Shown: positions 26,998-46,192 of the stretch, one piece after another
Layout: each line of letters starts with the position of its first letter
How positions within the stretch are numbered: position 1 is the stretch's first letter
Origin: Pseudomonadota bacterium
Lineage (GTDB): Bacteria; Pseudomonadota; Gammaproteobacteria; Acidiferrobacterales; UBA6901
Assembly (NCBI GenBank): GCA_021785515.1
Contig: JAJYEX010000006.1
Span: 100,251 to 164,250, forward strand
Length of the DNA: 64,000 nucleotides
Direction: 5' to 3'
Notes under the pieces: model-generated
Database searches by the model: none
What the model was told of the DNA's origin: nothing
The model's input: only the letters and a program-made list of their open reading frames with translations
Made by a program: the position numbers and the translations under genes

Positions 26998-29490
26998 TCA
27001 GGAGAATTGACGCAGGGTTTCCAGGGGCGGGCGCGTGAAAACAAAGCGCGTACCCCACATGCCGAACAGGCCCACGCCAACCCCCCCGGCGGCAGGTCCG
27101 ATGATCCATGGCCTCAGATCCACGGGATAGTGAAGACGAAAGATGCGCAGTGCGATGACGTGCCCTGCGACGGTGGCGCCCAGGGCAGCGAGGAATCCAG
27201 CGATCAGTCCGAGCGTTACAAATTCCACCGCCAGGCTCTGTGCCAGCTGCCGCGTGGTCGCCCCAATCGCCCGCATGAGGGCAGCTTCCCGCACGCGCTC
27301 ATCCTGGGTGGCCTGGACGGCCGCATAAAGCACGGTCAGCCCCGCCAACAAGGTGAACATGAAGACGTACTCCAGAGCCATATTCACGCGGCGCATGATG
27401 CCGCGCACCTGGGCAATCAGGGCCTGCACATTGATGATCGTCAGATTGGGAAAACGTTGGATCATTTTCTCCAGCAGGCCGTGCCGGTTTGCGGCCAGGT
27501 GAAAACTCGTTATGTATGTTGCCGGGTATTTGTCGAGAAGACCGGGCGGGGTCAGAATGAAAAAATTCGCGCTGAACGTGTCCCACTCCACGTGCCGCAG
27601 GCTCTCGACCCGCAGGGAAACATTCCGGTCCGCAATCCGATATTCAAGAGTATCACCGAGCTTGATTCCCAGCGTCTTCGCCAGCCCCTGCTCCACCGAC
27701 GCCACGGGCTGGCCGTACTGCGCGGCAGTCCACCACCGGCCGACCACAATGCGGTTGTCACGCTGCAGCCGTTTTGCCCATGACAGATTGAAGTCCCGTT
27801 CGGCCAGGTGGCGGGCACGGATGCCCGTATAGTGCAATGCGCGCACCGGTATGCCGTTGATTGCGAGCAGACGGCCACGCACCATCGGATAAAGCACTGC
27901 GGTTTTCAGTCCGCCGTCAACCAGAAAGTGGCGCAGTGATACGACCTGACCCGGCTGGACGTTGATGACAAACTGGTTCGGGGCATCCCGCGGAAGACTG
28001 CGCTCCCAGGCACCGAGCAGGTCGCTGCGCACCAGAGAGAGCAGAAGAAGAAGCATGATACCGACACCGAAGGCGACCACCTGCACGATACTGGAATAGG
28101 TCCGTCGGGTAATACCCGCAAGCCCCAAGTGCAAGATCGCCCCGGAGTGTGCGCGCATGAACTTGACGAAGCGGACCAAGCCATACGCAACAGTACCCAG
28201 TGCGGCAATCGTGCCAGCGGTAAGCACCAGCATGTAGCCGGTAAGTCTCAGGTCACGTGCCTGCCCCAGCATGAGCACGGCCACCACCATCAGCGCGGCA
28301 GCATAAGCCAGTCCGGTTCGCGCAGGAACCTGTCCAAGGTCGCGCCGCAGCACCTGCAGGGGCGGGACATCCCGCAACCGCAACAGCGGTGGAAGCGCAA
28401 ACCCCAACAGGACGACCAGGCCTGTCGACAGCCCCGCGACTACCGGCATCCAGGTTGGCGGGGGCAGCGACGCCGAGATCAGACTGGCGAGCAGGCGCAC
28501 CAGAACGAACTGGGCAAGGTAGCCGAGGCCACAGCCGACCATGCCGGCGACCAGACCCAGCCATAACATCTGCAGTACATGAAGCGACACGATATCGCGC
28601 TGTGTCGCTCCGAGGCAGCGCATGACCGCGGCGCCGTCAAGATGGCGCGCAGTGTAACGTCGCGCCGCCGTGGCAATGGCCACTCCTGCAAGCAAAACGC
28701 TTGCCAGCGCCGCCAAACCAAGGAATTTTCGCGCCTGACGGAGCGCCTCCCGAAGTTGCGGACTCGCATCACGCACCCCTTCAAGGCGAAGCCCCGGACC
28801 CAGGTGCGGTTGCACCCAGCGCCGGAACGCAGCCAGGGCTGGCACCGGACCCGCGATCAGCAGCCGATAAGTGACCCGGCTGCCCGGTCCGATCAGACCG
28901 GTAGTCGTGAGATCCCGCATGTTCATGAGCAGACGCGGCGCGATGCTAAACAGATCGCCACTGCGGTCGGGCTCGTAGCTAAGCACCCGGGCAATCCGCA
29001 ACGTGGAGGAACCGAGCTGCAGGCGGTCCCCCACTTGCAGCCCCAGTCTGCTCATCGCATGCGGACCCAGCCACACGCTGCCGCGCGCCGGGATCGCCGT
29101 GGCGGGAGAATCCGGTCCGTAAGGTATCGCCGACACCCGCAACACACCACGGAGCGGATACCCTTGGCTCACCGACTTTACGGCCAGCAGTTCGGTCCTG
29201 CCCTTGGCAAGCACAACACTCGGAAAGCTGACGGTCACAGCCGTGTGCAGTCCAAGGCGGCGAGCGTGGCGGGAAAACAACGAATTCACCGGATCGGATG
29301 AAATTATTGCCAGATCGGCACCCAGCAGCGCCGAAGCCTGACGTTCCATAAGCAGCTGGATCCGGTCCGCAAAAAATCCTACCGCACTGGTGCTGGCAAC
29401 GGCGATGACTAGCGCCAGCGCTAATACTCGCAACTCGCCGGCCCGCCAGTCGCGCGTCACGCCCGCGAGCGAAAGCCTAAATGTTTTCAC
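26998..29490 (-). CDS. ybbP: YbbP-like ABC (FtsX/MacB-type) permease
   Basis: RDWRAGELR, LLGADL, two FtsX-like halves, APNQFVINVQ; next to ybbA/tesA. Confidence 0.9.
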   Translation of the reverse strand: MKTFRLSLAGVTRDWRAGELRVLALALVIAVASTSAVGFFADRIQLLMERQASALLGADLAIISSDPVNSLFSRHARRLGLHTAVTVSFPSVVLAKGRTELLAVKSVSQGYPLRGVLRVSAIPYGPDSPATAIPARGSVWLGPHAMSRLGLQVGDRLQLGSSTLRIARVLSYEPDRSGDLFSIAPRLLMNMRDLTTTGLIGPGSRVTYRLLIAGPVPALAAFRRWVQPHLGPGLRLEGVRDASPQLREALRQARKFLGLAALASVLLAGVAIATAARRYTARHLDGAAVMRCLGATQRDIVSLHVLQMLWLGLVAGMVGCGLGYLAQFVLVRLLASLISASLPPPTWMPVVAGLSTGLVVLLGFALPPLLRLRDVPPLQVLRRDLGQVPARTGLAYAAALMVVAVLMLGQARDLRLTGYMLVLTAGTIAALGTVAYGLVRFVKFMRAHSGAILHLGLAGITRRTYSSIVQVVAFGVGIMLLLLLSLVRSDLLGAWERSLPRDAPNQFVINVQPGQVVSLRHFLVDGGLKTAVLYPMVRGRLLAINGIPVRALHYTGIRARHLAERDFNLSWAKRLQRDNRIVVGRWWTAAQYGQPVASVEQGLAKTLGIKLGDTLEYRIADRNVSLRVESLRHVEWDTFSANFFILTPPGLLDKYPATYITSFHLAANRHGLLEKMIQRFPNLTIINVQALIAQVRGIMRRVNMALEYVFMFTLLAGLTVLYAAVQATQDERVREAALMRAIGATTRQLAQSLAVEFVTLGLIAGFLAALGATVAGHVIALRIFRLHYPVDLRPWIIGPAAGGVGVGLFGMWGTRFVFTRPPLETLRQFS

Positions 29491-30202
29491 CGGCGGTCTC
29501 CTGCAGCCCGGTCTGCGTGTTGATGCCCGTTACGGCCGGGCCGTGCAGGTGTCCACCCGCAAGTCGCAGGATACGTTGGCAGTGCGCGGCAACTGCATCA
29601 TCGTGGGTGACGAGCAGTATGGTGGTTTTATGTTCGCGATTGAGCGCGAACAAAAGATCAATCACCCTCTCCCCCGTAGTCTGATCGAGATTCCCGGTAG
29701 GTTCATCGGCAAACAGGATCTTTGGACTGCCCGCAAACGCGCGCGCGATCGCCACGCGCTGCTGCTCACCACCTGACAGCTGGCTCGGATAGTGGCGCAA
29801 ACGATCCCCGAGTCCGACGCGCTCCAGCGCCTCCCGTGCCGTGCGGCCCGGGGCCGGGCGGCCAACAATCTCCAAGGCAAGCATGACGTTTTCCAGCGCA
29901 GTAAGGGCCGGCAGAAGCTGGAACGACTGAAACACGAAACCCACACGCCCGGCACGCAGCCGCGCGCGGCCATCTTCGTCGAGCGCGCTCAGGTCAACAC
30001 CGTCGAGCACAACGCGCCCGGCGGTGGGCACATCCAGCCCGGCAAGCAGACCCAGCAGGGTCGACTTGCCGGATCCGGACGCGCCGACAATGGCACACGC
30101 CTCGCCCGCCGCAAGCTGCAGGTCAACGCCGTCCAGCAATGTCAGCGTTCCTTCCGGACTGACCACGCGCTTGCCGAGTTTTTGCGCCTGCACCATGTAC
30201 AT
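29477..30202 (-). CDS. ybbA: YbbA-like ABC ATP-binding protein
   Basis: [29 protein letters not shown]. Confidence 0.92.
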
Positions 30203-30925: not shown

Positions 30926-31993
30926 TCAACGTGGTTTCGCCCTTTCGTATTGCACCGGCCACGCCAGGTCGACCCCTAGCAAGCGCGCCGCATGCAGCGG
31001 CCAGTAGGGATCCCGCAACAGCTGACGGGCAAGCAGTACTGCATCGGCAAGGCCGGTTGCGACAATCTGTTCGGCCTGGAACGCATCCGTAATCATTCCC
31101 ACGGCGCCCGTGGGGACCTGCGCACGGCTGCGGACCGCGGTCGCGAAGGGCACCTGGAATCCGGGGCCTGCAGGAATACGCGCGTCCGCAATCAAGCCAC
31201 CGCTCGAACAATCGATGAAATCGATTCCTGCTGTCCGGAGATGGCGTGCCAGCTCGATCGACTGCTCTAGGTCCCAGCCGCCATCGGCCCAGTCGGTGGC
31301 CGATATGCGCACGAACACCGGCAGGTCCTGGGGCCACACGTCGCGCACTGCACGCGCGACGCGCAGGGGAAGGCGCATCCGGTTCTCCAGACTGCCGCCG
31401 TACTCATCATCCCGCCGATTGCTGAGCGGCGACAGGAATTGATGCAGCAGGTAACCGTGCGCCATGTGTATTTCCGCCACGGCGAAGCCAACGCGGGCGC
31501 TGCGGCGCGCCGCATCGGCAAACTCGGTCACTACATGGTCGATATCGGCAGCGGTAAGCGCGGCCGGAACCGGGGAACCGGGGGAAAAAGGTACCGCGCT
31601 TGGCGCCAGGGGCTGCCAGCCGCCCGCATCCGGCCGCAGGGGCGCACCTCCACGCCATGGCGCATCCGTAGACGCCTTGCGTCCGGCGTGCGCCAGCTGT
31701 ATGGCAGGTACCGCGCCCTGATCGGCGATGAAGTGCGCAATGGGGGCGAGCGCCTCGGCGTGGGCCTGTGACCAGATTCCAACATCATGAGGTGAAATGC
31801 GGCCCGCCGCACTCACCGCGGCCGCCTCAGTCATGACCAGGGCGGCGCCTCCGACCGCACGGCTACCCAGGTGAACCAGGTGCCAGGACGTGGCAAAGCC
31901 GTCCGGCGCCGAGTACTGGCACATCGGTGAAACGAAGATGCGATTCCGGAAACGGAGTCCACGCATCTGCAGAAACGAAAACAGCTGGCTCAT
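30926..31993 (-). CDS. Old Yellow Enzyme family NADH:flavin oxidoreductase (YqjM/NamA-like)
   Basis: SPMCQYSA, QLAHAGRKAS, HMAHGYLLHQFLSP, LLRDPYWP. Confidence 0.92.
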   Translation of the reverse strand: MSQLFSFLQMRGLRFRNRIFVSPMCQYSAPDGFATSWHLVHLGSRAVGGAALVMTEAAAVSAAGRISPHDVGIWSQAHAEALAPIAHFIADQGAVPAIQLAHAGRKASTDAPWRGGAPLRPDAGGWQPLAPSAVPFSPGSPVPAALTAADIDHVVTEFADAARRSARVGFAVAEIHMAHGYLLHQFLSPLSNRRDDEYGGSLENRMRLPLRVARAVRDVWPQDLPVFVRISATDWADGGWDLEQSIELARHLRTAGIDFIDCSSGGLIADARIPAGPGFQVPFATAVRSRAQVPTGAVGMITDAFQAEQIVATGLADAVLLARQLLRDPYWPLHAARLLGVDLAWPVQYERAKPR

Positions 31994-33080: not shown

Positions 33081-34817
33081 TCACTGCGGATCGTGGGGCT
33101 GCTCCGGAGTGCGGTACATTTCCTCGATCTCCCTGGCAAAGTGCTCCTCGATCCTGCGCCGGCGCAATTTGAGCGTCGGCGTCAGCAGCTGATTCTCGAC
33201 AGTCCAGGGCTCGGTGACCCGGGCGATGTGGCGCACCCTGGCGTATCCGGGAAAGCTCCGCAGCCGGTCATTGGCCCGCTGGCACAGGACGCGCTCATCG
33301 GCCAGCTCGCTGACCACCAGCAGCCCGAGATGAGGCCGACCCTCGCCTACCACCATCACCTGCTGGAACACCGGATCGAGCAGGATCATCTGTTCAGCGT
33401 CCGCCGGCGGGATTTTTTCCCCGTTGCTAAGCACGATAATTTCCTTGGCACGACCCACGATGTAAATCCGTCCATCCTTGATGTGCGCCAGGTCTCCCGT
33501 ATGCAGCCAGCCGTCGGCGTCGATCATGGCGGCGGTAGCCGCGGCATTGTTCCAGTAACCCAGCATCACCTGAGGGCCGCGCGCCAGCAGTTCGCCGCTG
33601 TCGAGCGTTCTGACCTCGACCCCAGCGATCGGCCGGCCTACGGACGTCGGATCGTTGTCGCCGAGGCGATTGCAGCTCACGACCGGCGAGAACTCAGTAA
33701 GACCATATCCCTGCAACAGGGGTAGACCGAGGCCGAGAAACGTGCGTGAAAGCTGGGGCACCAGGGCCGCGGCGCCGGAAACAATCAGACGCATGCGACC
33801 ACCGAGATGGCCGCGCAGCTTGCGGCCAACCAGCGCGTCCAGCACCGGCCACAGCAGGCGGTCGCGCACGCGCAACTGTCCAGTGAACCGCCGCCATCCG
33901 ACATCGACTGACATGTCGAACAGGCGTCGGCGAAACGAACCTGCCGGCAGATTCTCCTGCATGCGTGCATAGATGCGCTCGAAGATCCGCGGTACGCACA
34001 CCATAAGCGTCGGACGCTGGCTCAGCAGGTCCTCGGAGAGCTGCGGTATGCCACGCGCAAAAACGGTGAGGGCCCCGACGCAGACTGCCATATAGTAGCC
34101 AACGGTACGCTCGAACATGTGTGAGAGCGGCAGAAACGACAGAAAGACGTCGTCCGCAGCGACACTGGGCACGGCATCGAGGCTGGTGCTCATGTCGCTG
34201 ACGATGTTACGGTGGCTCAGCATCACGCCCTTGGGCCGCCCGGTTGTCCCTGAGGTATACACCAGGGTCGCCAGATCCGCGGGTTGTGCCGGACCGGATT
34301 CCGGTAATTCACCCTCGGCCGGTAACCATGCGGACAGGGCTACTGCGGTTGCGTCACCCGCCGGCGCATTGTTGACGCAGACCACGCGCATAAGCGCCGG
34401 CAACTGTCCGTGTAGGCTGCGCCACAGTTGACCATCTTCGAGGAGAAGAAGGCGCACGCCGGCGTCATCCATGCACCAGGCCATGTTATCCGGCCTGTCG
34501 TTGTAGAACAGTGGTACCACCACCAACCCGAGGCCCAGGGCCGCCTGGTCGAACAGCACCCACTCGATCCGGTTTCGCATGCACAGCGCCACCCGGTCTC
34601 CAGGTCTGAGACCTTCGCTGCGCAGCGCCACCCGCCAGCGTCCCACTTCGACCCCTGCCTGCGCCCAGGTAATATCTTGCCAACACCCCCGGTTTTCATC
34701 GTCCGGCGCGTCCGGGTCCGGATGATGCTGGCGGTAGGCCGGCACGTCCGGCGTATCGGCGATGCGCGCCAGAAACAGCTCCGGCAAGGTCGTTCGCTCG
34801 GTGACCGGAATCCGCAT
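33081..34817 (-). CDS. Long-chain fatty acyl-CoA synthetase (AMP-dependent)
   Basis: YTSGTTGRPKGV, LPLSHMFER, QGYGLTE, WLHTGDL, LTPTLKLRR. Confidence 0.93.
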   Translation of the reverse strand: MRIPVTERTTLPELFLARIADTPDVPAYRQHHPDPDAPDDENRGCWQDITWAQAGVEVGRWRVALRSEGLRPGDRVALCMRNRIEWVLFDQAALGLGLVVVPLFYNDRPDNMAWCMDDAGVRLLLLEDGQLWRSLHGQLPALMRVVCVNNAPAGDATAVALSAWLPAEGELPESGPAQPADLATLVYTSGTTGRPKGVMLSHRNIVSDMSTSLDAVPSVAADDVFLSFLPLSHMFERTVGYYMAVCVGALTVFARGIPQLSEDLLSQRPTLMVCVPRIFERIYARMQENLPAGSFRRRLFDMSVDVGWRRFTGQLRVRDRLLWPVLDALVGRKLRGHLGGRMRLIVSGAAALVPQLSRTFLGLGLPLLQGYGLTEFSPVVSCNRLGDNDPTSVGRPIAGVEVRTLDSGELLARGPQVMLGYWNNAAATAAMIDADGWLHTGDLAHIKDGRIYIVGRAKEIIVLSNGEKIPPADAEQMILLDPVFQQVMVVGEGRPHLGLLVVSELADERVLCQRANDRLRSFPGYARVRHIARVTEPWTVENQLLTPTLKLRRRRIEEHFAREIEEMYRTPEQPHDPQ

Positions 34818-34818
34818 G

Positions 34819-36864
34819 CTAGGCCTGCGACCCGGCGTCACGGGTGAAGAGATCAGACCTCCCCCACGCCTCATCGGGTTCGAAACGGGGCCCGTATTCC
34901 TGCGCCAACCGCCGCAGACTGCTGGAGATGCCAACCTCGCCCAGCGCTTCAGCGTAGCGCATGGGCCCGCCGAGATAAGGGGCAAAACCGGTACCGAAAA
35001 CCATGCCTGCATCAACCGCGTCGAGATTATCCACTACCCCTTCGCGCACACAGGCGACGGCTTCGTTCAGCATACGCAGGATAAGTCTTTCGGTGACGGG
35101 CAGGTCGCTGTGCCCGCGAACCGGGCGGCGCCGTGGCTTGCCGGACTTGTCGTAGGCATAAAAACCTTTTCCGGACTTTTTTCCGAGATCGCCGCGACCA
35201 ACCGTCTCACGCAGACGTTCGGGCACCGGAATACCGAGCGGACCGGAAAGCATCTCCGCCACCGACAGGCAGATATCGAGGCCGACGGTGTCAGCCAGCA
35301 GCACCGGGCCCATCGGCATGCCGAAGCGGGTCGCGGCATCATCGATCTCCTCGATGGCGACACCTTCCTGCGACAGCATCATCGCCTCGATGAGATAGGG
35401 CATCAGTACACGGTTCACCAGGAATCCCGGGCTGCTCCGGACATCCAGCGGCATCCGGTCTATGGCGACAGTAAACGCCCGGGCACGCTCCACCGACGAG
35501 TCACTGGTCTGCCGGCCACGCACGATTTCGACCAGCTGCATCTGCGCTACCGGATTGAAGAAATGCAGTCCCACCAGACGCGAAGGATCGCGCAGGGCTT
35601 CGCCCAGTACTTCCAGGGGGATACTTGAGGTGTTGGTGGCCAGCAGCGTCTCCGGTCGCACCCTTCGCTCGATGTCGCGAAGCAATTCACACTTGGTAGC
35701 CGCCTTCTCCACGATCGCCTCGATAACGAGATCGGCCCGCCCCAGTCCGTTGCCATCGAGGTCGGGCATCAACCGGTCCATGGCGTCCTGGATTGCCACC
35801 GGCTTTTTGAGTTTTTTCCGATAGAATCCATAGGCCTTCTTGATCGTTCCGGCCAGAGCCTCTGGCCGCTGGTCCTGCAGGCTGACACGAAAGCCCCTGG
35901 ACGCAGCCCAGATGGCGATGTCACCACCCATGATACCGGCACCCACAACATGGACATGGGCCACACCGTGCGGCTGCCGGCGTCCCTGGCGTTTTAGCTT
36001 CTCGCCGAGCAGAAAAATGCTCACCAGGTTCCTGCTGGTGCGCCCAACCATCAACTCACTCAGCGATCGCGCCTCCTCTTCCTGCGACGCGCCTCGGCGC
36101 CAGAGCTCAAGCGCCCGATAGGGGGCGGGATAATGGTCGGGATTGACCTTTTTCCGCAGCTGCCGCTGCAGCAGGCGCGTCACCGGTTTGCGCAACGGCG
36201 ACCAGGCGGGTACCCGTTTCCACCAGGCCGCGCGACGCTGCCGGGGATGGCGCGCGACGAATGCGTGCGCGGCACGGAGCAGATGTCTTTCGGGTACCGT
36301 CTCGTCAACCAGGCCGAGAGCACGCGCCTGGTGGGCGCTCACGGTGCGCCCCGACAGAATGAGGTCGAGCGCCGCCAGGTCACCAATGAGCGGTGGCAAG
36401 CGAACCGTTCCGGCAAAACCCGGATGGATTCCCAGCCGCACTTCTGGCAGACCCAGCCTGGTCGCATCGTCCTCGCGTGCGATACGATAGGTACAGGCAA
36501 GCGCAAGCTCCAAACCGCCGCCCAAACAGTGTCCGTGAATCAGCGCCACACTGGGATACGGCAAGCGGGCCAACCGGTTGAACACCGCCTGCCCAGCACC
36601 GGCAAGGGAAACTGCCTGCGCCATGTCCGAGATTTTTTGGAATTCATTGACATCCGCGCCTACGATGAAGCTGTTGGATTTGGCCGAACGGATAATCACA
36701 CCATTGAGCGGACGGCTTTCGATCTGAGCCAGGATGCGGTCAAATTCTGCGAGCACTTCTGCAGACAGTGCATTGGCTCGCTGGCCCGCCACGTCAAGCG
36801 TCAGCACGATGGTTTCGTCAACCTCCTCGCTGCGCCAGTGTACGGCGTCGATATCGGAGCTCAT
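34819..36864 (-). CDS. fadJ: Multifunctional enoyl-CoA hydratase/3-hydroxyacyl-CoA dehydrogenase (FadJ/FadB type)
   Basis: GGGLELALAC, LPEVRLGIHPG, GAGIMGGDIA, ATNTSS, HFFNPV, PGFLVNR; ATGA overlap with thiolase. Confidence 0.9.
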   Translation of the reverse strand: MSSDIDAVHWRSEEVDETIVLTLDVAGQRANALSAEVLAEFDRILAQIESRPLNGVIIRSAKSNSFIVGADVNEFQKISDMAQAVSLAGAGQAVFNRLARLPYPSVALIHGHCLGGGLELALACTYRIAREDDATRLGLPEVRLGIHPGFAGTVRLPPLIGDLAALDLILSGRTVSAHQARALGLVDETVPERHLLRAAHAFVARHPRQRRAAWWKRVPAWSPLRKPVTRLLQRQLRKKVNPDHYPAPYRALELWRRGASQEEEARSLSELMVGRTSRNLVSIFLLGEKLKRQGRRQPHGVAHVHVVGAGIMGGDIAIWAASRGFRVSLQDQRPEALAGTIKKAYGFYRKKLKKPVAIQDAMDRLMPDLDGNGLGRADLVIEAIVEKAATKCELLRDIERRVRPETLLATNTSSIPLEVLGEALRDPSRLVGLHFFNPVAQMQLVEIVRGRQTSDSSVERARAFTVAIDRMPLDVRSSPGFLVNRVLMPYLIEAMMLSQEGVAIEEIDDAATRFGMPMGPVLLADTVGLDICLSVAEMLSGPLGIPVPERLRETVGRGDLGKKSGKGFYAYDKSGKPRRRPVRGHSDLPVTERLILRMLNEAVACVREGVVDNLDAVDAGMVFGTGFAPYLGGPMRYAEALGEVGISSSLRRLAQEYGPRFEPDEAWGRSDLFTRDAGSQA

Positions 36865-38159
36865 TTCGGCTCTCCCTGAACACGCACGAGCATCGCGCCA
36901 CCCTGACCGCCACCGATACACAGCGTGGCGACGCCGAGCCCTCCGCCATGACGTCGCAGCGAGCGCAACAGGTGCAGGACAAGGCGCGCGCCGCTTGCTC
37001 CGACAGGGTGGCCGGTTGCGACCGCGCCGCCGTCGATGTTCAGACGCGATGGATCCATGGGGCCAGGAGGCGCGTCGAGGCCAAGTTCATCGCGGGCGTA
37101 CTCAGGACTCGCCCAGGCAGCCTGGCAGGCGAGAACCTGTGCTGCGAAAGCTTCGTTGAGCTCCATCTGCTGAATATCCCTCATCGCTAGGCCGAAACGG
37201 CCGAGCAGTTTCGACACTGCATGAACCGGACCGAGCCCCATCTGGGCTGGATCGACCCCAGCCCATTCATCGCCAAGAATCTCACCCAGCACCGGCAGAT
37301 TGTAACGCTGCACCGCGGCCTCGCTGGCCAGCACCAACATGGCTGCGCCGTCAGTCACCTGTGAACTGTTGCCGGAGGTCACGGAGCCGTACTTGCTGTC
37401 AAACACCGGCCGGAGTCTGGCCAACTGCTCCATGTCTGAATCCCGGCGCAGGCCGGTGTCTTCCTGATAGATGCGGCCGCGGCGATCGTACAGCGGCTCG
37501 ACCTCGCCGCGCATCTGCCCGGTGTCGTAGGCAGCGGCCAGACGCTGGTGGCTGCTCAGCGCGTAGGCATCCTGCTCTGCCCGGCTGATGTCGAAGCGGT
37601 GTGCAACAATCTCTGCCGTCTGTCCCATGTTCAATTTCACCAGAGGATCAGTCAGGCCGAGCAACAGTGTGTATACCGGCACCAGATGGGACAGACGGAA
37701 CCCGCCGATGGCCCGCAGACGCGCAATGGGATTGCGCGCCCGCATGACCGCGGACAGCCAGCCCACCATGGCAGTGTTCCACTGGATCGGCGCGTGACTC
37801 ATCGCCTCGGTGCCACCAGCCAGCACCAGATGCGACCGTCCCTGGGCGATGCGTTCGCGCGCGGTCGCCAGCGCCTGCAGCCCGGAAGCACAATTGCGCT
37901 GGACGGTGAACGCAGGAACGGTCTTGCCGCATCCCAGGCGCAGCCCGATAATGCGTGCGATATTCGCTTCGTCCGGTGCCGGAATCACACAGCCGACGAT
38001 GATCTCATCGATGTGGTCCGGCGCAAACGGCGCGCGCGCCAGCAACGGGCGGGCAGCAGCCACCGCCAGATCGCCGGCACTGAACTCGTTCGCCTGGCCG
38101 CGCGCCTTCAGAAATGGCGTGCGTGCACCGTCGATGACGTAAACCTTCGCATCCGACAT
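36861..38159 (-). CDS. fadI: 3-ketoacyl-CoA thiolase (FadI type)
   Basis: RNCASG, NEAFAAQ, GHPVGASGAR, CIGGGQG. Confidence 0.9.
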   Translation of the reverse strand: MSDAKVYVIDGARTPFLKARGQANEFSAGDLAVAAARPLLARAPFAPDHIDEIIVGCVIPAPDEANIARIIGLRLGCGKTVPAFTVQRNCASGLQALATARERIAQGRSHLVLAGGTEAMSHAPIQWNTAMVGWLSAVMRARNPIARLRAIGGFRLSHLVPVYTLLLGLTDPLVKLNMGQTAEIVAHRFDISRAEQDAYALSSHQRLAAAYDTGQMRGEVEPLYDRRGRIYQEDTGLRRDSDMEQLARLRPVFDSKYGSVTSGNSSQVTDGAAMLVLASEAAVQRYNLPVLGEILGDEWAGVDPAQMGLGPVHAVSKLLGRFGLAMRDIQQMELNEAFAAQVLACQAAWASPEYARDELGLDAPPGPMDPSRLNIDGGAVATGHPVGASGARLVLHLLRSLRRHGGGLGVATLCIGGGQGGAMLVRVQGEPK

Positions 38160-38271
38160 AGTGGTCTCCAAAAAATTCTCCGCGCGACGAAAAGCTGTCG
38201 CTGATGCTGCTTGTTGTTATCAAAATAAAACATGCCTCACAGACCCGCCCGCGATTTGCAGTAGCTGGATA

Positions 38272-41200
38272 CTATGACCCCGGACGTCGCCTGCCGCCAA
38301 ACCCTTCGCCGTCAGACGCGAGGTCGCCGTGGGTCCCCAGCCGCTGCAGCAGCACCGGCACCCATTCTTCGATCGCACCCACACAGCGGATCACCTGCGG
38401 CCCCGGATTCTGGTGGGACCAGCTAAAGATGGGCGCGCCCGGATCGCGGTTTATGGCCACCACCACCGCGCCCGGATCGATCCAGCCCATGTGTTGGGGA
38501 GCCCCGGATATGCCCAGTGCCACCAGCAGCGCAGGCGCCACCCGCACACCGGTCTGGCCGATCTGCCGGTCAACCGGCAGCAGCTTGAGCTCCTGGGTAA
38601 CCTTGCGGCTTGCCCCCAGCTCCACGTTCGTCCCGCTCAGCCGCGCGAGTGCCGCACACAACGGCGGCACCAACTGCGGGTAATCCGGCCGGCTCGCGGC
38701 GCCAAGACCAACGTCGACGATTAGTCTGGCTGTGGGCAGGCCTGCGGGCGGCTGGTCATGGCTGCGCGCCAGCGCCGGACTGCGCAGGCGCTCCACGGGC
38801 AAGCGGCTCACCGGGATCACGGCCGATGGCGATGCGCCGAGCGTCGGTCCACTGTATCCCCGACCGACTACCAGCACGGCTGCATCCGGAAGGGGATATT
38901 CCACCTCGTAGCCGTCACTGGAGCAGGTTACGACCCGCGGGCTTATACCGCTTACCCCGTCCAAAAACCTTAGCCCGAGGCGAGCGGCGAGCACCGCCCC
39001 AAGCGCACCGTGTTCCGCATCGAGGATCAGACGACGCGACGCACCCAGCTGGCCGGCCAACAACCCAGCCAGCGCCGCCGGCAGTGCTTCCCCGTTTATC
39101 GGCAGCTGCCACAGACCCCTGAATCCCGGCTGGGCCAGAAGCGCTGCGGGTGCGGGAGGCGTAGCGGCGGCGGAATGCCATGCCAGCACACCGAAACTGA
39201 TACCGAGCCCGGCAAGCACCTGCAATGCTGGTGCCCGACCGGCACCTGCCAGCGTGTCTGTCGAGGTCAACCACAGCGTGCCGTCGGGCAGTGGTGAATT
39301 CCCAGGACGGGTGGCCGCTGCCCGGTCCGATGTGGCGCCAGCACCGAAGCGCTTCTGCAACCACGCGGCCAGTTCATTGGCATCGGCAAATTGCTGAGGG
39401 AGGTCCGTACCAGGAGGCGGCGCCTGGGACCGCACGGCGGTGGGCGCCAACCCCCCGGCCACCTCGGCACGTGGCACTGGCTCCCGCAAGGCCGCCAGCC
39501 AGCTACGCACGCTGTAGCGCGTGGCCCGATCTCCTGGTTTCAGATCCCAGGCCAGAGCTATGCGGCGCGCGTCGGCCGCATAGCGCCGCCGCCAAGACGC
39601 GTCGTCGAGCCAGAGTCCGCGTCTGCGCAAACCGATGGCCGTCACATTTTTTACCAAAACCGCGGCAATTGACTCGGACATGCCGGAAACGAAAGCCGCG
39701 TCTCCGGCACTGGCCGCGGAACAGCCCAGCGCCCAGCGCCCGAGTGCCGGCCAGACACCCAGAATTACGCTAGCGGCATCGGACGCCGAAACGGGGCCAG
39801 CGGGTTGGACGACATGCAGGACTTCAGCACCCGCGGCCTGCAGCCGGCGCAAGGAGTCCGCGATGCCGGGCGGTCCGATCGCAGCAATCTTCACCCGCAT
39901 GGACGAACACCCATCGGACCAGCACAGCATCCTGTCGAGCACTGCCAAATCGGCAGAATTCCATCCGGCCCATTCGAGGCGGCCCCCCACGGGCTCAAAG
40001 CGGCTGCGCAGCACCACGCCCCAGTCCCCCACTAACGCACCGACAGCGACGGGCTCGTCTTCGGCGCTTCCGGTCCGGGACAGCGCTGCCCGGGCCAGTG
40101 CCAGACCGGCGTCTGCCGGATCCGGACCTGCTCTGCGCTCGGCCCTGGCGAAATCCGCCTGTATCATGTCGGCCACTTCCCGCGCATGCCGGGCGATATC
40201 GGTTTCGCTGTCCCGCAGGCGGGCGATGTTCTCCCGGTCTGCGGGGTCCCCCAGAGATTCCAGCAACCGGACGCGTTCGTGCAGCGCTGCCCAGCCGTAA
40301 AGTTCGGCTAGCCAGTCGACCACAGGAAACCAGCGCGCCTGCAGATCTGGATTCTGCCACAGACCGGAATCCAGCCCGGCCACGCGTGCCGCGGTGAATT
40401 GGCGAAACTTCTGCAGCGCCTGCTCGAGTTCGGCATTGTCGTGGACGGAGACAGCTGGCTCGCGCAGCAGCGCCGGAAGATCCTTCAATACGAGGAACCT
40501 TTGAACCTCGTTGGTGCCTTCGTAAATGTTCAGGATCCGTATATCGCGCCGCCACTTTTCCAGCATCACCTCGCAGGCAGCGGCGTCCGCGCCATACAGT
40601 GTATCCAGCCAGCCGAGAATGCGATGTGCCCCCTCGGAGGCGAGATACTTGGAAAGCGCTGCTTCAATCCGGAAATCTCCCTGCCGCAGGTCGGCCCGAT
40701 CCATCAGACCCATGAGGCGCGCGGCCAGTGTCTGCAGGCGGTCGCACTCCGCCTGGGCCGCGCCATGCAGCTGCGGATCCTTGCGCCACACTGGCAGGAA
40801 ATCCCGCAGTGCGCGTTCCGCGAGCGCTGCGCAACTCATAACGAGACCGCCGCGCCCGACGCTCAGCGTCTCGAGCGCGTTCACCTGGCCGTGGCCCGCG
40901 AAACCGATCATCTGGTCGGCGCTTACGCGCACCCGGTCGAGGGTGAGCTCATTGGTGGGCGACGCGCGCTGGCCAAGCTTGTTTTCATTCGGACCGATAT
41001 GCAAACCTTCTGAACGCCGCTCCAGCATGAAGCCGGTCTCGCCGAATCCGGTCTGCGCATACAGGCAATAGCGATCGGCGACCGAACCGTTGGTTATCCA
41101 CATCTTGTTTCCCGACAGCTCCCAGTAGCGATAGCAGGCCTTGCCGTTACGGACGACAATCGTTCCGATATCGTCGTAGGGATAGGTATGATCGCCCGTG

Positions 41201-44200
41201 CGTATCTGGCGTCGCCCGCAATTGCGCGCCATGTCCCAGTCGCTGTCGTCGAGACTGGCCAGGCGGCCATCCGGCAAGCGGAAAAACGGGCGGCGGCGCT
41301 CGAATACCAGACGCTGCGCATCCAGCAGCAGGCGCGGTTTTCCGTCCACGTTGAACCGGTACAGGCCGTGCTCGTCCTGCTGCACCTCCGCCTCCCTCAG
41401 TAATGCGCGCGTCTGGATGCCGCCGGTGTCGGAACCGGCTGCCGGCTCGGTCAGCGCAAAGGCGCTGATCTGCCCGCAGGCGAGAAACTGCAGAAAGCGC
41501 TGATGGGCGCCGGTGCGCGCCTCGATTTCGCCCTGCTCGTCCGCGAGCCGTGCCCGGGCCTGCGGCAGACCGTCGCGAGCGCGCTGCAGACAGTCGGCCA
41601 GCGCCCTGAGGTCACTGGCCTTGGCCGCCGCCACAGTCTGCTGCACCAGCTGCAGAAAATCGCGCACCAGGTACTTCAGCGTCGAACCCGGAAAGAGAAA
41701 CAGGCGCTGCACCAGCGCCCCGGTATGCTCCAGCGCACGCCGGAGCGCACCACGCTCGGGACGCTCCACTATCCGGATCAGCCGGTCCAGGCCGTCCTGC
41801 AGCGACTGCCACCCGGCCGTATCGGCCAGGCACCCGGACGTCTCCTGCCGCAGCCGCGGCAGATCCTTTTCGAGCCCGAGCAGCACGGGCATGGTGCCAA
41901 TGCTGGTGCTGGCCATGATCAACAGGCCGGTGGCCGTGTCCTTTTCGGCCATGCACAGATTGGTAAGCACCGAGTATTGCGCCTTGCTCCAGTTCTTCCC
42001 TCCGAATACTTCCGGCACGATGGTGGCAAAGGCGTTGAAATCACGCAGCAACTGGATGTCGGCCGGCGGCATTCCGTGCATTTCGTCGATATAACGACCG
42101 TATGGCTGCTTGCGGTTCGGGCTGCGAAAGCCGCGACGCAACAGCCGCAGCACATCGGCGCGCGTACGACGCAACAGCGGGTCTCGGCGGAAATGCTCCG
42201 GGACGAGCAGGCTGTCCGGTGCAAGCAGCTGGCCGTTCAGGAAGCTGCCGCTGTGATAGGCGAACCGGACATGCGGCTTCCATCTGAGCGGGCGAACCGG
42301 CGCCGGCGGCCGGCGTTGAAGGATTGCGGCCCGGGGCGGTGCTAGCGCCCCCAAATGCTGGTGACTGTCTGCAAGGCAGGTCAGACTCTCGGATACGACG
42401 GGATCGACGTCGGATTCCGGTGCCCACTTGAGCACGCGCGCGCCGAAACCGGGATCGGTTTTGCCCAGCGCGCGGGATCCAGGCCACTGGCTGAACACGA
42501 TGGCGTCACGGTAACGCGGCGCCAGAATGTCCTCTTCGGAATAGGCCATGCCTCCGAACGCCTGTCCGGCGAGCCAAGGCACGGCGGTCATCCACGGACC
42601 CATGCACTCCCGCACCAGCAGTAACACCTGTTCCGGTTCACGTTCGCACCAGCAGCGCGCCAGACCGAGCAACGTGCAGGCGTATTCAATGCCTGCCAGC
42701 ATCTGCTTTACCGCTCCGAATTTTGCGATGCTCTCGCGGCCTTCACTGTCACGAAGTTCGCCGCGAAACTGGACGCGGGTCGATGCGTAATCCACCGCCC
42801 GACGACGCAGCTCGGCAGCCTGGCCGAGGGCCAGAGCCAAGCCAAGCTCTGCTGCCGCAGATGTGGCATGGAAACCGCCTGGATCCTGCTCCACGAGCCG
42901 ACGCACCGGCTGGGCGGCATCGGCACCAGCGCCGTGCGCAACCGCTCCCCCGGCATGCAGCACGCTCCCGTCAGCCGCTACAAGCACCTCGGCAACGGCC
43001 GGCAGCCAGTTCGAGCTTCCGTCTTCCTCGCGCCACAGCGGCGCTGCAATGAGATGTTCGATAGGCCGTCGTGCGCAGATTTCGGCCAGGTAATGTCCTG
43101 CGGCGATCCAGGCGAGGGCGCCTGACCAGGTAGCGAGCCATTCGACTGCGGTCGTACGGTGACTTCGCGCGGCGGCGATCCACGCACACAGGACGTTGCG
43201 GCTCCCCAAATCCCAGGGCGCCTGCGCCAGAGCCTTCAGCCTGTCTGCCGAGAAATACCGCTGCAGCTGCTCCCACTCATGCCGCCTACGCAGATCTGCG
43301 TGCACACCGGGTTCGCGCACACCGCGCGTGTCGACTGGCAACGCCCCGGCCTGCTCCAGCAGCGCCCGAGTTTCGCTTTCCATCCAGCCGTAGGCCTGAC
43401 GCTTAAGCCAGGCCTCGAGCCGCACCACCGTGGAATGCGTCAGTCCGCTTGCAGGAACCTCCCCCAACAGCCTTGCCCAGGCACGCGGCCATTCCGCCGT
43501 CACCATTGCCGGTCGGACACGCAACGAACAATACAGACGCTGCCAAGAGGTGATCTCCGATTGAATGAGATGGAGCGCGTCTTGCGGAGGCGGATCCAGG
43601 TTCGATGTCACGGAAGAATCCAGACCGCTGCGGCTATCCCCGGGCACCCGGTAGGCAAACCGGTGGCCGCTGGTGCGGTTCCAGTCCACGCCCGGCACCG
43701 TCACGCGACAGGATTCGCATTTGATGCAGTTTTCGTGCTGGCTCGCAACACCGCCGAGGCGGCCAGCCAGGCTGTAGACTTCGGCGGGACAGACGTTGCG
43801 CAACTGCCGGGCTGCGGAGCCAAGATCCACGGGAACCGTGATATGTCGCGGATCGGGCCGGTAACGCAGCAACGGAGCGATCCAGCCGGTGGGGGACAAG
43901 GGGCTGCGGTGGGCACCGCCCCAGTCCAGCTTCTCGCGCGCCTTCTCTTCATAACCGTGGTAGGGCAGCTGCTGCAGTGCCTGCAGGCGCAAACGGCCTG
44001 TGCGGTAGGCCGCAAGATCAGAGAGCAGTGCGGCACCGCCCGCCAATGCGCCGAGAGACAGGCGGGTAACCCGCGGCAGCACCAGCGGTGCGCGCACCAT
44101 GCTACGCCAGACCATCGCCACGCGGTCGGAAAATTCGGGCAGGCGTCGGCCATAGAAATGGCCGATCGCCTGAGCCGCCAGCTGCAGCAGCGGGTCGTTC

Positions 44201-45603
44201 TTCGCCGCGATCGGAGCGGGCGGGCCGCAGGCGCCTGATGTCAGGAACTGGACCGCCAGGGGCTCGACCGCATATTTCACGCGCCGCTTGGGCCCCATTC
44301 CACGCGCCAGCCGCAACAGCTGCGTCGAGTCACGCCGCAGGCGCGTGAGCTCCATGCCCAACGCACGTCGACGCTGGGCGCGCGCGGCGGCCGGAGCTAG
44401 GCGGCTTGCATCCACCAGCTGGCCCAGCAGGGCGGGAATATGGTCAAACAGCGCCGGGCCCCTGTGAAGCGTCGTCGGCCATCGGCGGATGAGTGCAGCA
44501 TTGCGATAATCGGTGGTGCCGCGCAATGCCTCGGCATATTCAAGCTCCAGTTCATTACGAGTGTAACGGGAGCCCTTGCTGCGTATGCGCAGCACCGCAT
44601 CGGCAAAAGTCAGTGCGCTGGCAATGGCGGGGGCAACAAAGTTTGGATAGGGCACCTCCTGCCCGAGTCCGAGGCAGCCGCCGCCAACCGCCAGTCCGTC
44701 TCGCACCCACTGCGGCGTCTCGTCAACTCCCCCCGAACGGATCACCTTGGCGCCATAAGCGATTTGCTGCGCGCCTTCAAGATAGTAAGCAATGGACGAG
44801 AGCGCGCGCACCCGCTCAAACAGATGAGCGTGGTCGGCAACAGACTGCTGTGCCAGGCGCTCGAGCGGAAGCACCAGTCCAAGCGAGAGGGAGTTTTGGT
44901 TCGTATACAGGAAAGCGGTCACATTAAGCCGCACGGCATGGCCCGCGTAGCGACCGTTGCGCAACATCCATTCCTGCGCCACGCCTTCGCCCGGACTCAA
45001 TTGGAAGCGCTCCTCGATCCGGGCCGCCGGCAGGGAGAACAGCGCCTTGATGCCTTGCGCGTAATGCAGATGCGCCTGACGTTCCAGTCCCTCGCGTGCC
45101 AACAGCCCGGCCGCGTCGCCTTCCGCGAGAAAGACCACTTCGGCGTTGATCGCGCCGCGGTCAGTCGTTACGCCTACAACGCGGTCTCCACTGTAGCGCA
45201 GACCCGTCGCAGTCGTATCCGTGAGCAGCGTCACCCCAAATTCGACCGCGCGACTGGCCAGCCACCGGTCGAGCTTGGGGCGCAGGACCGTCCAAGCCTC
45301 GCCATAGTCGTTTCCCGCATGGGAGCGCGCCTCGAAGCCGGCCGCGTTGATGCCATCGTGCAGGAACAGGCTGCGACTGACGATGCGCCGTTCCTTGGGC
45401 GCCCGGGCCCACAGCTCCTGGCCGAGCACGTCTTCGCGCAGCAGGCCCTCCGCATGATAGACGCAGCCTGACCAGTTCTCCGCCCCGGCGTATTCGGCCC
45501 CCTCGATCAACATCACCGCAACTCCAGCGCGAGCCAGCCGCAGCGCCGCTGCGGTGCCAGCGGGCCCGGCTCCGATGATGAGGACTTCTGGCGGGGAGGG
45601 CAT
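38272..45603 (-). CDS. ~2,440-aa fusion: FixC/FixX (ETF-QO-like) + two acyl-CoA dehydrogenase modules + EtfB-like + EtfA
   Basis: GAGPAG FAD motif; CPAEVY...CIKCESC Fe-S motif; RVQF / QAFGGMAY; FALTEPAAGSD, KMWITNG, IYEGTNEVQR; C-terminal GASR..., QIGQTG, GISGAPQH, AINRDPGAPIF; uninterrupted ORF; start at ATG 45603 inferred. Confidence 0.9.
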   Translation of the reverse strand: MPSPPEVLIIGAGPAGTAAALRLARAGVAVMLIEGAEYAGAENWSGCVYHAEGLLREDVLGQELWARAPKERRIVSRSLFLHDGINAAGFEARSHAGNDYGEAWTVLRPKLDRWLASRAVEFGVTLLTDTTATGLRYSGDRVVGVTTDRGAINAEVVFLAEGDAAGLLAREGLERQAHLHYAQGIKALFSLPAARIEERFQLSPGEGVAQEWMLRNGRYAGHAVRLNVTAFLYTNQNSLSLGLVLPLERLAQQSVADHAHLFERVRALSSIAYYLEGAQQIAYGAKVIRSGGVDETPQWVRDGLAVGGGCLGLGQEVPYPNFVAPAIASALTFADAVLRIRSKGSRYTRNELELEYAEALRGTTDYRNAALIRRWPTTLHRGPALFDHIPALLGQLVDASRLAPAAARAQRRRALGMELTRLRRDSTQLLRLARGMGPKRRVKYAVEPLAVQFLTSGACGPPAPIAAKNDPLLQLAAQAIGHFYGRRLPEFSDRVAMVWRSMVRAPLVLPRVTRLSLGALAGGAALLSDLAAYRTGRLRLQALQQLPYHGYEEKAREKLDWGGAHRSPLSPTGWIAPLLRYRPDPRHITVPVDLGSAARQLRNVCPAEVYSLAGRLGGVASQHENCIKCESCRVTVPGVDWNRTSGHRFAYRVPGDSRSGLDSSVTSNLDPPPQDALHLIQSEITSWQRLYCSLRVRPAMVTAEWPRAWARLLGEVPASGLTHSTVVRLEAWLKRQAYGWMESETRALLEQAGALPVDTRGVREPGVHADLRRRHEWEQLQRYFSADRLKALAQAPWDLGSRNVLCAWIAAARSHRTTAVEWLATWSGALAWIAAGHYLAEICARRPIEHLIAAPLWREEDGSSNWLPAVAEVLVAADGSVLHAGGAVAHGAGADAAQPVRRLVEQDPGGFHATSAAAELGLALALGQAAELRRRAVDYASTRVQFRGELRDSEGRESIAKFGAVKQMLAGIEYACTLLGLARCWCEREPEQVLLLVRECMGPWMTAVPWLAGQAFGGMAYSEEDILAPRYRDAIVFSQWPGSRALGKTDPGFGARVLKWAPESDVDPVVSESLTCLADSHQHLGALAPPRAAILQRRPPAPVRPLRWKPHVRFAYHSGSFLNGQLLAPDSLLVPEHFRRDPLLRRTRADVLRLLRRGFRSPNRKQPYGRYIDEMHGMPPADIQLLRDFNAFATIVPEVFGGKNWSKAQYSVLTNLCMAEKDTATGLLIMASTSIGTMPVLLGLEKDLPRLRQETSGCLADTAGWQSLQDGLDRLIRIVERPERGALRRALEHTGALVQRLFLFPGSTLKYLVRDFLQLVQQTVAAAKASDLRALADCLQRARDGLPQARARLADEQGEIEARTGAHQRFLQFLACGQISAFALTEPAAGSDTGGIQTRALLREAEVQQDEHGLYRFNVDGKPRLLLDAQRLVFERRRPFFRLPDGRLASLDDSDWDMARNCGRRQIRTGDHTYPYDDIGTIVVRNGKACYRYWELSGNKMWITNGSVADRYCLYAQTGFGETGFMLERRSEGLHIGPNENKLGQRASPTNELTLDRVRVSADQMIGFAGHGQVNALETLSVGRGGLVMSCAALAERALRDFLPVWRKDPQLHGAAQAECDRLQTLAARLMGLMDRADLRQGDFRIEAALSKYLASEGAHRILGWLDTLYGADAAACEVMLEKWRRDIRILNIYEGTNEVQRFLVLKDLPALLREPAVSVHDNAELEQALQKFRQFTAARVAGLDSGLWQNPDLQARWFPVVDWLAELYGWAALHERVRLLESLGDPADRENIARLRDSETDIARHAREVADMIQADFARAERRAGPDPADAGLALARAALSRTGSAEDEPVAVGALVGDWGVVLRSRFEPVGGRLEWAGWNSADLAVLDRMLCWSDGCSSMRVKIAAIGPPGIADSLRRLQAAGAEVLHVVQPAGPVSASDAASVILGVWPALGRWALGCSAASAGDAAFVSGMSESIAAVLVKNVTAIGLRRRGLWLDDASWRRRYAADARRIALAWDLKPGDRATRYSVRSWLAALREPVPRAEVAGGLAPTAVRSQAPPPGTDLPQQFADANELAAWLQKRFGAGATSDRAAATRPGNSPLPDGTLWLTSTDTLAGAGRAPALQVLAGLGISFGVLAWHSAAATPPAPAALLAQPGFRGLWQLPINGEALPAALAGLLAGQLGASRRLILDAEHGALGAVLAARLGLRFLDGVSGISPRVVTCSSDGYEVEYPLPDAAVLVVGRGYSGPTLGASPSAVIPVSRLPVERLRSPALARSHDQPPAGLPTARLIVDVGLGAASRPDYPQLVPPLCAALARLSGTNVELGASRKVTQELKLLPVDRQIGQTGVRVAPALLVALGISGAPQHMGWIDPGAVVVAINRDPGAPIFSWSHQNPGPQVIRCVGAIEEWVPVLLQRLGTHGDLASDGEGFGGRRRPGS

Positions 45604-46192
45604 GATTTTATTCTTCCGTATCCTAGTAGTTATAGCAAAGCCGGGCAGGAAGACAGCGACCACCGGGCACGCTGGATTAATGGAGCATGGCGCGAGAGCC
45701 TGGGCGTAACCTTGGGTGGTGACCGACATGGGTGAGGGCCGCCTCTAACGAAAAGGTGGATGGACCGCAATCGGCAATATGTGGGTCGTGGGCAGCCCCG
45801 AGCGATGCGTTCAGGAAAGAAGGCGAATGAAGCGGCCATCGCGGGCTTTGGGAATATTGGGCTTCTGGCAGAGCGGGCGACCGGCAAACAGATTTAATGG
45901 TACGCCCGATGGAGGCGTTGCAGTGGAGCGACGCAACTTGGACCGCGCACCCCGACACAGCCGGACTTTTCGGGGCGCACCCGGGTCAAAGCACCGGTCG
46001 ATACTAAAGCGGTCAGTGCTTATGCCCCGTTTCTATGCCCCGGGCCACAGCAGCGGCGGCGTTGGTTGCGTGCTAGGGCGGTATGCAATTTTCCCTGAGC
46101 GCGGTAAATGCCCTTTTTTGCCAGCCCTGCTGCCAGTCAGCCCCGAGGCGCAGGGAATGGAAAGCATTAGATATGTAACCTATCATTTGTCC

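Follow-up and report, generated by a model that had tools for sequence, protein, structure and literature searches.

The pairing of two unlike acyl-CoA dehydrogenase (ACAD) folds around a single flavin has, to our knowledge, so far been treated as a speciality of the degradation of steroid side chains and rings, where the asymmetry is thought to provide the enzymes with a wider substrate pocket. In the α2β2 ACADs ChsE4-ChsE5 and ChsE1-ChsE2, the α-subunit is described to bind the isoalloxazine and to carry the glutamate and the substrate site, whereas the β-subunit binds the ADP-ribose part of the flavin adenine dinucleotide (FAD) (PMC11153573), with one FAD being reported per αβ heterodimer (PMC8399759). 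The latter report also describes CasC from Rhodococcus jostii RHA1, in which two ACAD domains are fused, the C-terminal of which alone carries the Glu, while its N-terminal partner is required for the binding of FAD (PMC8399759). Here we report on a gene contained in a 64,000-nucleotide stretch of DNA (termed the window) from a gammaproteobacterium of the order Acidiferrobacterales (contig JAJYEX010000006.1, positions 100,251 to 164,250), which encodes a protein of 2485 amino acids (aa) with two consecutive ACAD modules, A and B, that have lost complementary sets of flavin-binding motifs. We consider it likely that both modules together act as the dehydrogenase core within an acyl-CoA:quinone oxidoreductase made of a single chain, in which two ACAD folds form one FAD and active site.

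The gene is located on the (-) strand, as are all features of the window described below, and consists of a single open reading frame (ORF) at positions 38272-45729, which is read from window position 45729 down to 38275. A preliminary description of the locus had assigned two ACAD modules with reciprocal motif loss to positions 40490-42850. Both modules are in fact segments of one much larger single gene, with this span being contained inside the 2485-codon ORF. It holds the nine motifs that had been quoted, all of which are present where claimed, but it falls short of the entire module A, whose fold starts about 155 residues upstream (residue ~805, window 43317). Searches with Pfam, NCBIfam and profiles against solved structures define the domain order FixC-FixX-helical bundle-module A-linker-module B-helical extension-EtfB-EtfA. 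The ACAD pair occupies only the middle third of this FixC-FixX-ACAD'-ACAD-EtfB-EtfA chain.

Module B (residues ~1176-1756, 40462-42204), in which Pfam recognizes the domains Acyl-CoA_dh_M and Acyl-CoA_dh_1, has the features of a catalytic ACAD resembling the very-long-chain enzyme VLCAD, to which helical and β-inserts have been added. Its motifs comprise FALTEPAAGSD (residues 1424-1434), KMWITNG (1542-1548), KLGQRAS (1584-1590), ILGWLDTLYG (1704-1713) and IYEGTNE (1735-1741). Within TEPAAGSD (T1427-D1434, 41428-41451), the residues T, E, P, G and D are invariant, as is the stretch KMWITN that contains the start of WITNG (W1544-G1548, 41086-41100). Also invariant is IYEGTNE, whose YEGT (40513-40524) aligns to FEGTN of VLCAD and includes E1737, which we take, from what is known of the medium-chain enzyme MCAD and of VLCAD, to be the catalytic base. 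The closest relatives of the module in sequence are VLCAD and ACAD9, together with the long bacterial ACADs 2z1q and 3owa, with an E-value of 3.2e-29 to 3b96_A obtained from the single sequence and E-values of ~1e-53 to this group obtained with a profile, and Foldseek relates it to ACADs with a TMt of about 0.8. In this similarity, in the Glu of [YF]EGT and in the presence of a C-terminal helical extension, module B conforms to a VLCAD-type ACAD. In an alignment to human VLCAD, it matches TEPxxGSD, WI[TS]NG and [YF]EGTN, but RTQF of VLCAD faces VWRK and QIMGG faces TLYGA. The loss of RxQF and QxxGG, which had been proposed from the window sequence, is thus real, and the module lacks the copies of both motifs that a symmetric homodimer would carry in each subunit.

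The helical extension behind module B (residues ~1757-1898, 40036-40461) resembles the additional domain found at the C-terminus of VLCAD-type ACADs. The profile matches to 2z1q_A and 3owa_A proceed ~100 profile positions past the ACAD core into this region, which by itself shows a weak match to the ACAD C-domain (E 0.0015). Compared to ordinary ACADs, module B additionally contains two large inserts, a bundle of long helices within the N-terminal domain (residues ~1265-1417, 41479-41934), as seen in the secondary structure of an AlphaFold2 (AF2) model, and an extra β-rich stretch ahead of KMWITNG (residues ~1445-1535, 41107-41394). Docking of the electron transfer flavoprotein (ETF) or contact to the membrane are possible roles of these inserts.

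Module A (residues ~805-1132, 42334-43317) displays the reciprocal pattern. It contains the motifs AVDYASTRVQF (residues 978-988), IAKFGAVKQMLA (residues 1001-1012), AGQAFGGMAYSEE (residues 1054-1066) and RYRD (residues 1072-1075). RVQF (R985-F988, 42766-42777), QAFGG (Q1056-G1060, 42550-42564) and YRD (Y1073-D1075, 42505-42513) are all conserved, and a profile alignment places RVQF, QxFGG and YRD of the module on RVQF, QIFGG and MRD of 1buc. The catalytic Glu and the flavin-ring motifs TEPxxGSD, WITNG and YEGT are absent, with a WPG (42478-42486; P1083 is found in 111/120 homologues) standing in place of the latter. A profile built from 52 module A segments retrieved, from all PDB sequences, 27 matches at E<=1, of which 1buc_A is the best (6.9e-7); these include 24 ACADs, the ACAD-fold enzyme DnmZ and two unrelated proteins at E>0.5. 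Since Foldseek matched only module B when queried with a 1070-residue model of both modules, module A was modelled separately. The resulting AF2 model of residues 718-1132, with a predicted local distance difference test score (pLDDT) of 88.0 and a predicted template modelling score (pTM) of 0.80, was superimposed with VIA-align 2 on whole ACAD chains with Z-scores of 17-20.7, the highest being found for 7xp7_A (Z 20.7, root-mean-square deviation (rmsd) 3.8, 263 residues aligned) and for residues 2-384 of 4iv6_B (Z 19.7, rmsd 3.9, 275 aligned). All three domains of an ACAD (N-terminal α, middle β and C-terminal α) are present, with the β-domain, which forms the pocket for the flavin and the acyl chain, being reduced to about 50 residues. 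In light of the profile matches, the AF2 model and the superpositions, the fold of module A is genuinely that of an ACAD, complete although eroded, but module A is not an active ACAD.

The complementary losses are maintained throughout the family. We have analysed the best 120 of 260 relatives found in a search restricted to protein lengths of 1366-4349 aa, a set that includes the window protein, spans 35-78% identity and originates from Acidiferrobacterales, Nitrospirota, Leptospirillia and Verrucomicrobiae, and find the reciprocal pattern in 120/120. In module A, the residues R985, Q987, Q1056, G1059 and G1060 are present in all 120 proteins and F988 in 119, and the same full conservation holds for each of S1064, E1065, Y1073, R1074 and D1075. 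Expressed as motifs, module A contains RxQF in 119/120 and QxxGG in 120/120 cases, TEPxxGS and W[IV][TS]N in 0/120 and [YF]EG[TS] in 1/120, which confirms the losses initially ascribed to it. Module B retains TEPxxGS in 118/120 and both W[IV][TS]N and [YF]EG[TS] in 120/120, and shows RxQF in 2/120 and QxxGG, if counted anywhere in the module, in 15/120; the aligned column of the second Gly is occupied by Pro in 107/120 proteins and by Gly in 0/120. Among 31 further giants from a representative library at 50% identity, RxQF and QxxGG precede TEPxxGS in every case, and the full ordered pattern is found under strict definitions in 27, with the other four each missing one strict module B pattern. 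Since the mean column identity across module A amounts to only 26%, the invariance of the motifs is strong evidence of selection, and the reciprocal pattern is, judging from these alignments, not due to chance. Continuous ORFs of at least 2200 aa are found at 51 of 69 related loci. A decayed pseudogene is ruled out by the intact ORF in the window and at these 51 loci and by the invariant module A motifs, and the erosion of the module is in this respect a specialization and not decay, as had been suggested. A scan of contigs adds relatives in metagenome-assembled genomes (MAGs) from Planctomycetota, Gemmatimonadota, Acidobacteriota and Lentisphaerae. In total, the MAGs with relatives of 2300-2900 aa represent at least eight groups at the phylum level.

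The relationship between both modules is illustrated by structure prediction. A single-chain AF2 model of residues 691-1760 is compact, with a pLDDT of 84.4 and a pTM of 0.83. In a two-chain model comprising module A (residues 746-1090), module B (residues 1176-1756) and FAD, the complex was assigned a score of 0.87 compared to 0.00 for the best of three controls. The mark set for this score is reached by 116/157 solved complexes and 2/215 mismatched pairs, counts that are only rough in the present case, where a custom alignment was used and a ligand included. Separate runs share at least 85% of the contacts, and the pLDDT of the partner is at least 77. Module A is placed against the loops of the flavin site of module B and not away from them, as anticipated for a shared site. 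On the side of module A, the interface consists of V986-R989, Q1056, G1059-G1060, A1062-E1066, Y1073-R1074 and the WPG region; on the side of module B, it consists of A1430-D1434 from the GSD loop, W1544, E1582-G1586 and helices within residues 1699-1745, including I1735, Y1736 and T1739. Residue pairs with low predicted error are D1434 of module B with Q987 of module A and I1735 of module B with G1059 of module A, and Y1073 and R1074 of module A are in contact with R1728 and R1731 from module B. The contacts follow a pseudo-two-fold relationship, in which the degenerate QxxGG stretch of module B (T1710-A1714) meets the degenerate YEGT stretch of module A (S1080-R1086). Of the 15 invariant residues of module A, 10 are found among the 41 interface residues of the 345 that were modelled (Fisher p 3.8e-7). 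R985 is located outside the list of protein-protein contacts, as would be anticipated were it directed towards the cofactor. The elements for binding FAD are thus divided, with the ring side in module B and the ADP side in module A, in the motifs of 120/120 proteins, and the two sets are adjacent in the modelled interface.

These features suggest that modules A and B are packed against each other in the manner of the subunits in an ordinary ACAD dimer. Module B would supply the substrate pocket, the catalytic E1737 and the loops surrounding the flavin ring (TEPxxGSD, WITNG and YEGT), and it would have given up the two motifs which in a normal dimer reach the FAD of the partner. Module A, devoid of its own flavin pocket and catalytic Glu, would retain the cross-acting RVQF and QxFGG together with the residues of the dimer interface. 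Because the motif losses of both modules are complementary, we infer that there is one complete FAD and active site per pair rather than two. In such an arrangement, module B would assume the α role and module A the β role of mycobacterial α2β2 ACADs, with both being fused as they are in CasC. The preliminary description had proposed exactly this sharing of one FAD site by two modules, and the motif split, its conservation and the modelled interface all support the proposal, with the contacts to FAD itself being presumed from the position of the motifs. Of the two results that it had named as contradicting the proposal, a reciprocal pattern not shared by homologues and a module A located remote from the flavin site of module B, neither was obtained.

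Several observations weigh against the assignment of module A and its proposed role. The Foldseek TM-scores of the module are modest (0.36-0.46), which fits with its shortened β-domain. In the window copy, module A reaches 17.0 bits on PF00441, under the cut-off of 22.4, and among 14 homologous segments, 12 match this model at E<=1 and just four reach the cut-off; the N or M domains of ACADs as defined in Pfam are found in none of the 14. Module A is likewise unreported in a Pfam search with the whole protein, and sub-segments gave E-values of 0.025 and 0.007, which are under the cut-off. Since the window copy by itself stays below these thresholds, the significant ACAD sequence match of module A is that of the family profile. 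A comparison of the profiles of modules A and B with hhalign is not significant (probability 0.3%, E 0.19), even though the alignment did cover the expected QxxGG...RD stretch, and the homology of either module to ACADs was established separately, module by module. Concerning the pairing, the proposed contacts of R985, Q1056 and the two glycines to FAD are derived from neighbouring protein contacts and from the known structures of MCAD. In addition, because solved ACAD homodimers are abundant, the score of the complex may reflect likeness to these and not prove the binding of this particular pair, and the model would fit a pairing within the chain and a swapped pairing between chains alike.

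The latter point leads to the alternative that survives best, in which modules A and B would complement each other in the same way but between chains, yielding a dimer with swapped domains and two sites for FAD. We regard this organization as unlikely, although VLCAD-type ACADs are dimers. It would be compatible with the linker between the modules (residues ~1133-1175, 42205-42333), which is long, variable in length and poorly modelled (pLDDT 44-55 at model residues 440-490), and the two-chain model would be the same for one chain or two. Conversely, the single-chain model with its pTM of 0.83 is compact, the ~43 residues of the linker would be long enough to join both modules within a chain and, in the fused precedent CasC, both domains are described to work in one polypeptide (PMC8399759). 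In a second alternative, to which we assign only a small probability, module A would be a mere scaffold or spacer derived from a duplicated ACAD, whose motifs are maintained to support folding or the docking of the fused ETF or FixC and play no role in the binding of FAD. The reduced β-domain and the missing flavin pocket would suit a scaffold, as would the protein-protein contacts that the conserved S1064, E1065, Y1073 and R1074 make in the model, and the contact of module A to FAD is deduced instead of being observed directly. However, its invariant residues R985, Q987, F988, Q1056, G1059 and G1060 (119-120/120) are exactly the motifs facing the FAD site of the partner, module B has lost exactly those motifs, and the equivalent subunit of α2β2 ACADs is described as binding FAD at its ADP-ribose part (PMC11153573). 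Finally, it is highly improbable that module A, although a complete and confidently folded three-domain unit, would act as an independent ligand-binding or catalytic entity with a cofactor or nucleotide site of its own that is unrelated to the flavin of module B, in view of the lack of TEPxxGS and W[IV][TS]N (0/120 each) and of YEGT-like motifs (1/120), the reduction of its pocket-forming β-domain and the inability of module B to supply the cross-acting motifs to such a site.

The preferred organization, a dehydrogenase core with one FAD site formed by modules A and B of the same chain, shares with CasC, as far as its published description extends, the presence of two ACAD domains in one polypeptide and their order, with the dead preceding the live domain. 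By the same description, CasC differs in being a stand-alone protein that acts on bile-acid CoA esters and that is encoded in a steroid gene cluster, whereas in the giant protein module B is nearest to VLCAD and ACAD9, the neighbouring genes encode a thiolase, fadB and fadD, and the pair forms part of a fusion that also includes ETF and FixCX. The pairs ChsE4-ChsE5, ChsE1-ChsE2, IpdE1-IpdE2 and Tcur3481-Tcur3483 show the same split of FAD roles and a catalytic Glu in only one of the two folds, but α2β2 ACADs are encoded by separate genes and act on steroid substrates. Module A superimposes on the steroid ACADs 4x28_C (Z 18.3, rmsd 3.8, 265 aligned) and 6wy8_A (Z 19.1, rmsd 3.6, 263 aligned) at Z-scores that are level with those obtained for ordinary ACADs. 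ChsE or Tcur chains are absent among the 27 PDB matches of the module A profile (E<=1) and among 54 matches of module B (E<=1e-10). Module B has VLCAD and ACAD9 as its best matches, a special affinity to the steroid ACAD clade is not seen in these sequence comparisons, and genes of steroid catabolism are not found among the neighbours, which encode a thiolase, a FadB-like protein and an AMP-binding ligase. The pair thus appears to have originated independently of the steroid ACAD clade. VLCAD, ACAD9, 2z1q and 3owa, which rank highest among the sequence matches of module B and share the helical extension after YEGT, form symmetric homodimers that contain two FAD sites and in which each subunit contains RTQF and QIMGG; module B has lost both motifs and is partnered by a degenerate module instead. 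The FixABCX/EtfABCX complex (7koe) resembles the flanking modules, which match FixC, EtfA and EtfB, and a natural single chain with EtfB followed by EtfA (SaETF) has been published (PMC12042025), but in either case any ACAD is a separate protein. Our searches of the literature on the megafusion and on fused ACADs found no paper on ACAD, ETF and FixCX in one chain. While the principle of an asymmetric pair with one FAD is already known from the α2β2 steroid ACADs and the fused CasC, what looks new is an apparently independent instance of the fatty-acid type.

The rest of the protein contains a FixC flavoprotein, the Cys motif of FixX and domains of EtfB and EtfA. The FixC-like FAD quinone-reductase module (residues 48-440, 44410-45588) matches the NCBIfam FixC family with an E-value of 2.5e-39 and, with a family profile, FixC in the PDB entry 7koe_C with 1.6e-54. 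It is followed by a FixX-like motif for a [4Fe-4S] cluster (43708-43791), consisting of C647 and C668-x2-C671-x2-C674, which shows a weak match to Fer4_ETF_QO (E 0.13) and whose four cysteines are invariant across 46 full-length homologues. The helical bundle preceding module A (residues ~720-800, 43330-43572) consists of helices in the AF2 model and has only generic helical-bundle matches (Z 7.7-7.9). Behind module B and its extension, the EtfB-like module (residues ~1899-2127, 39349-40035) matches 4kpu_B (9.6e-21) and 6fah_B (1.9e-20) in profile searches, and the EtfA-like module with its FAD domain (residues ~2142-2467, 38329-39306) matches 1t9g_R (4.3e-36) and the Pfam domain ETF_alpha (9.7e-16). 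Electrons would thus pass from the ACAD to the FAD of the fused EtfB/EtfA and further via the FixX-like iron-sulfur cluster and the FixC-like FAD to quinone. The true start of the protein is probably M43 (ATG at window 45603), giving a length of 2443 aa, because the homologue matches start at residues ~29-48, and a GGAAG stands upstream of this ATG. The 42 codons that precede M43 in the listed ORF (45601-45729) are probably untranslated, with conservation starting at residues ~44-48.

The gene heads a β-oxidation operon of the order thiolase-fadB-fadD. Directly downstream is the thiolase gene (36861-38171; Thiolase_N 8e-66, Thiolase_C 3.3e-38), which is followed by genes coding for a FadB-like enoyl-CoA hydratase/3-hydroxyacyl-CoA dehydrogenase (34819-36921; ECH_1, 3HCDH_N and 3HCDH) and for an AMP-binding acyl-CoA synthetase (33081-35015; AMP-binding 4.2e-76), whose listed ORF start is probably over-extended. 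The order megaprotein-thiolase-fadB-ligase is kept at 10 related loci, and five more contain thiolase and/or fadB in their flanks; neither was seen in the available flanks of 54 of the 69 loci, many of which are short. In its own genome (3.05 Mb, 99.9% complete), the megaprotein is the only protein matched by three Pfam models for ACADs. As sole ACAD of the genome and head of a β-oxidation operon, it must be functional if the pathway runs. The same genome contains, on a different contig (C3, ~60704-65679), a separate conventional operon resembling fixA/fixB/fixC/fixX, which codes for EtfB, EtfA, a FixC-like protein with a match to ETFQO_UQ-bd and a frame of 95 aa that weakly matches Fer4_ETF_QO. 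The fused ETF and FixCX modules are therefore paralogues and not the sole set of the cell.

The conservation across several phyla of reciprocal loss in a VLCAD-like enzyme that serves as the sole ACAD of a β-oxidation operon suggests that the asymmetric design also arises for reasons other than those considered in steroid enzymes. A likely reason in the present case would be to balance a single dehydrogenase site with a single fused ETF and a single fused quinone reductase. As a tentative extension of this idea, the pair with one FAD may have evolved convergently from a VLCAD-like enzyme for the sake of stoichiometry, with one ACAD FAD, one ETF FAD, one [4Fe-4S] cluster and one FixC FAD per self-contained monomeric acyl-CoA:quinone oxidoreductase of 2443-2485 aa, and module A may have had its inactive face co-opted for docking the tethered flavin domain of ETF. 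As a structural object, the megaprotein tethers the partners of the electron transfer from ACAD to ETF and from ETF to its quinone oxidoreductase at a fixed 1:1:1 stoichiometry, and the transient docking geometry might therefore be caught in one particle. Since module A of the window copy is below the Pfam cut-off, such proteins will be annotated as a single ACAD domain with a long unexplained stretch.

A convincing free-standing module A was not found in a profile search against 1.84 billion representatives, a library that cannot separate fragments from whole proteins. The search returned 489 matches at E<=0.001. Among 142 newly returned proteins that were analysed, 31 are the giants of at least 1900 aa described above, 78 are short and 33 fall into neither group. 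The 78 short proteins look like fragments, as their matches run into a protein end. Pfam analysis of 16 of the other 33 identified one ordinary ACAD (P0255), nine FixC-headed proteins without ACAD motifs and six unclear or partial cases. The FixC-headed proteins (P0195, P0204, P0208, P0210, P0216, P0244, P0246, P0248 and P0261) form a family of ~1400-1700 aa with a FixC-like head, a CxxCxxC motif and a partial match to the profile of the module A region, lacking RxQF, TEPxxGS and YEGT; some of them may be truncated genes, and P0244 contains an ETF domain close to its end. In the homologues P0075, P0079, P0082 and P0089 (2240-2610 aa), ACAD and ETF domains but no FixC-type domains are listed by Pfam, which could point to forms that lack a fused quinone reductase or to incomplete gene calls.

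On the same strand of the window, the operon is followed further downstream by a gene coding for an NADH:flavin oxidoreductase of the Old Yellow Enzyme type (30926-31993) and by a pair of genes coding for a MacB-like ABC ATPase and an FtsX permease (26998-30202).

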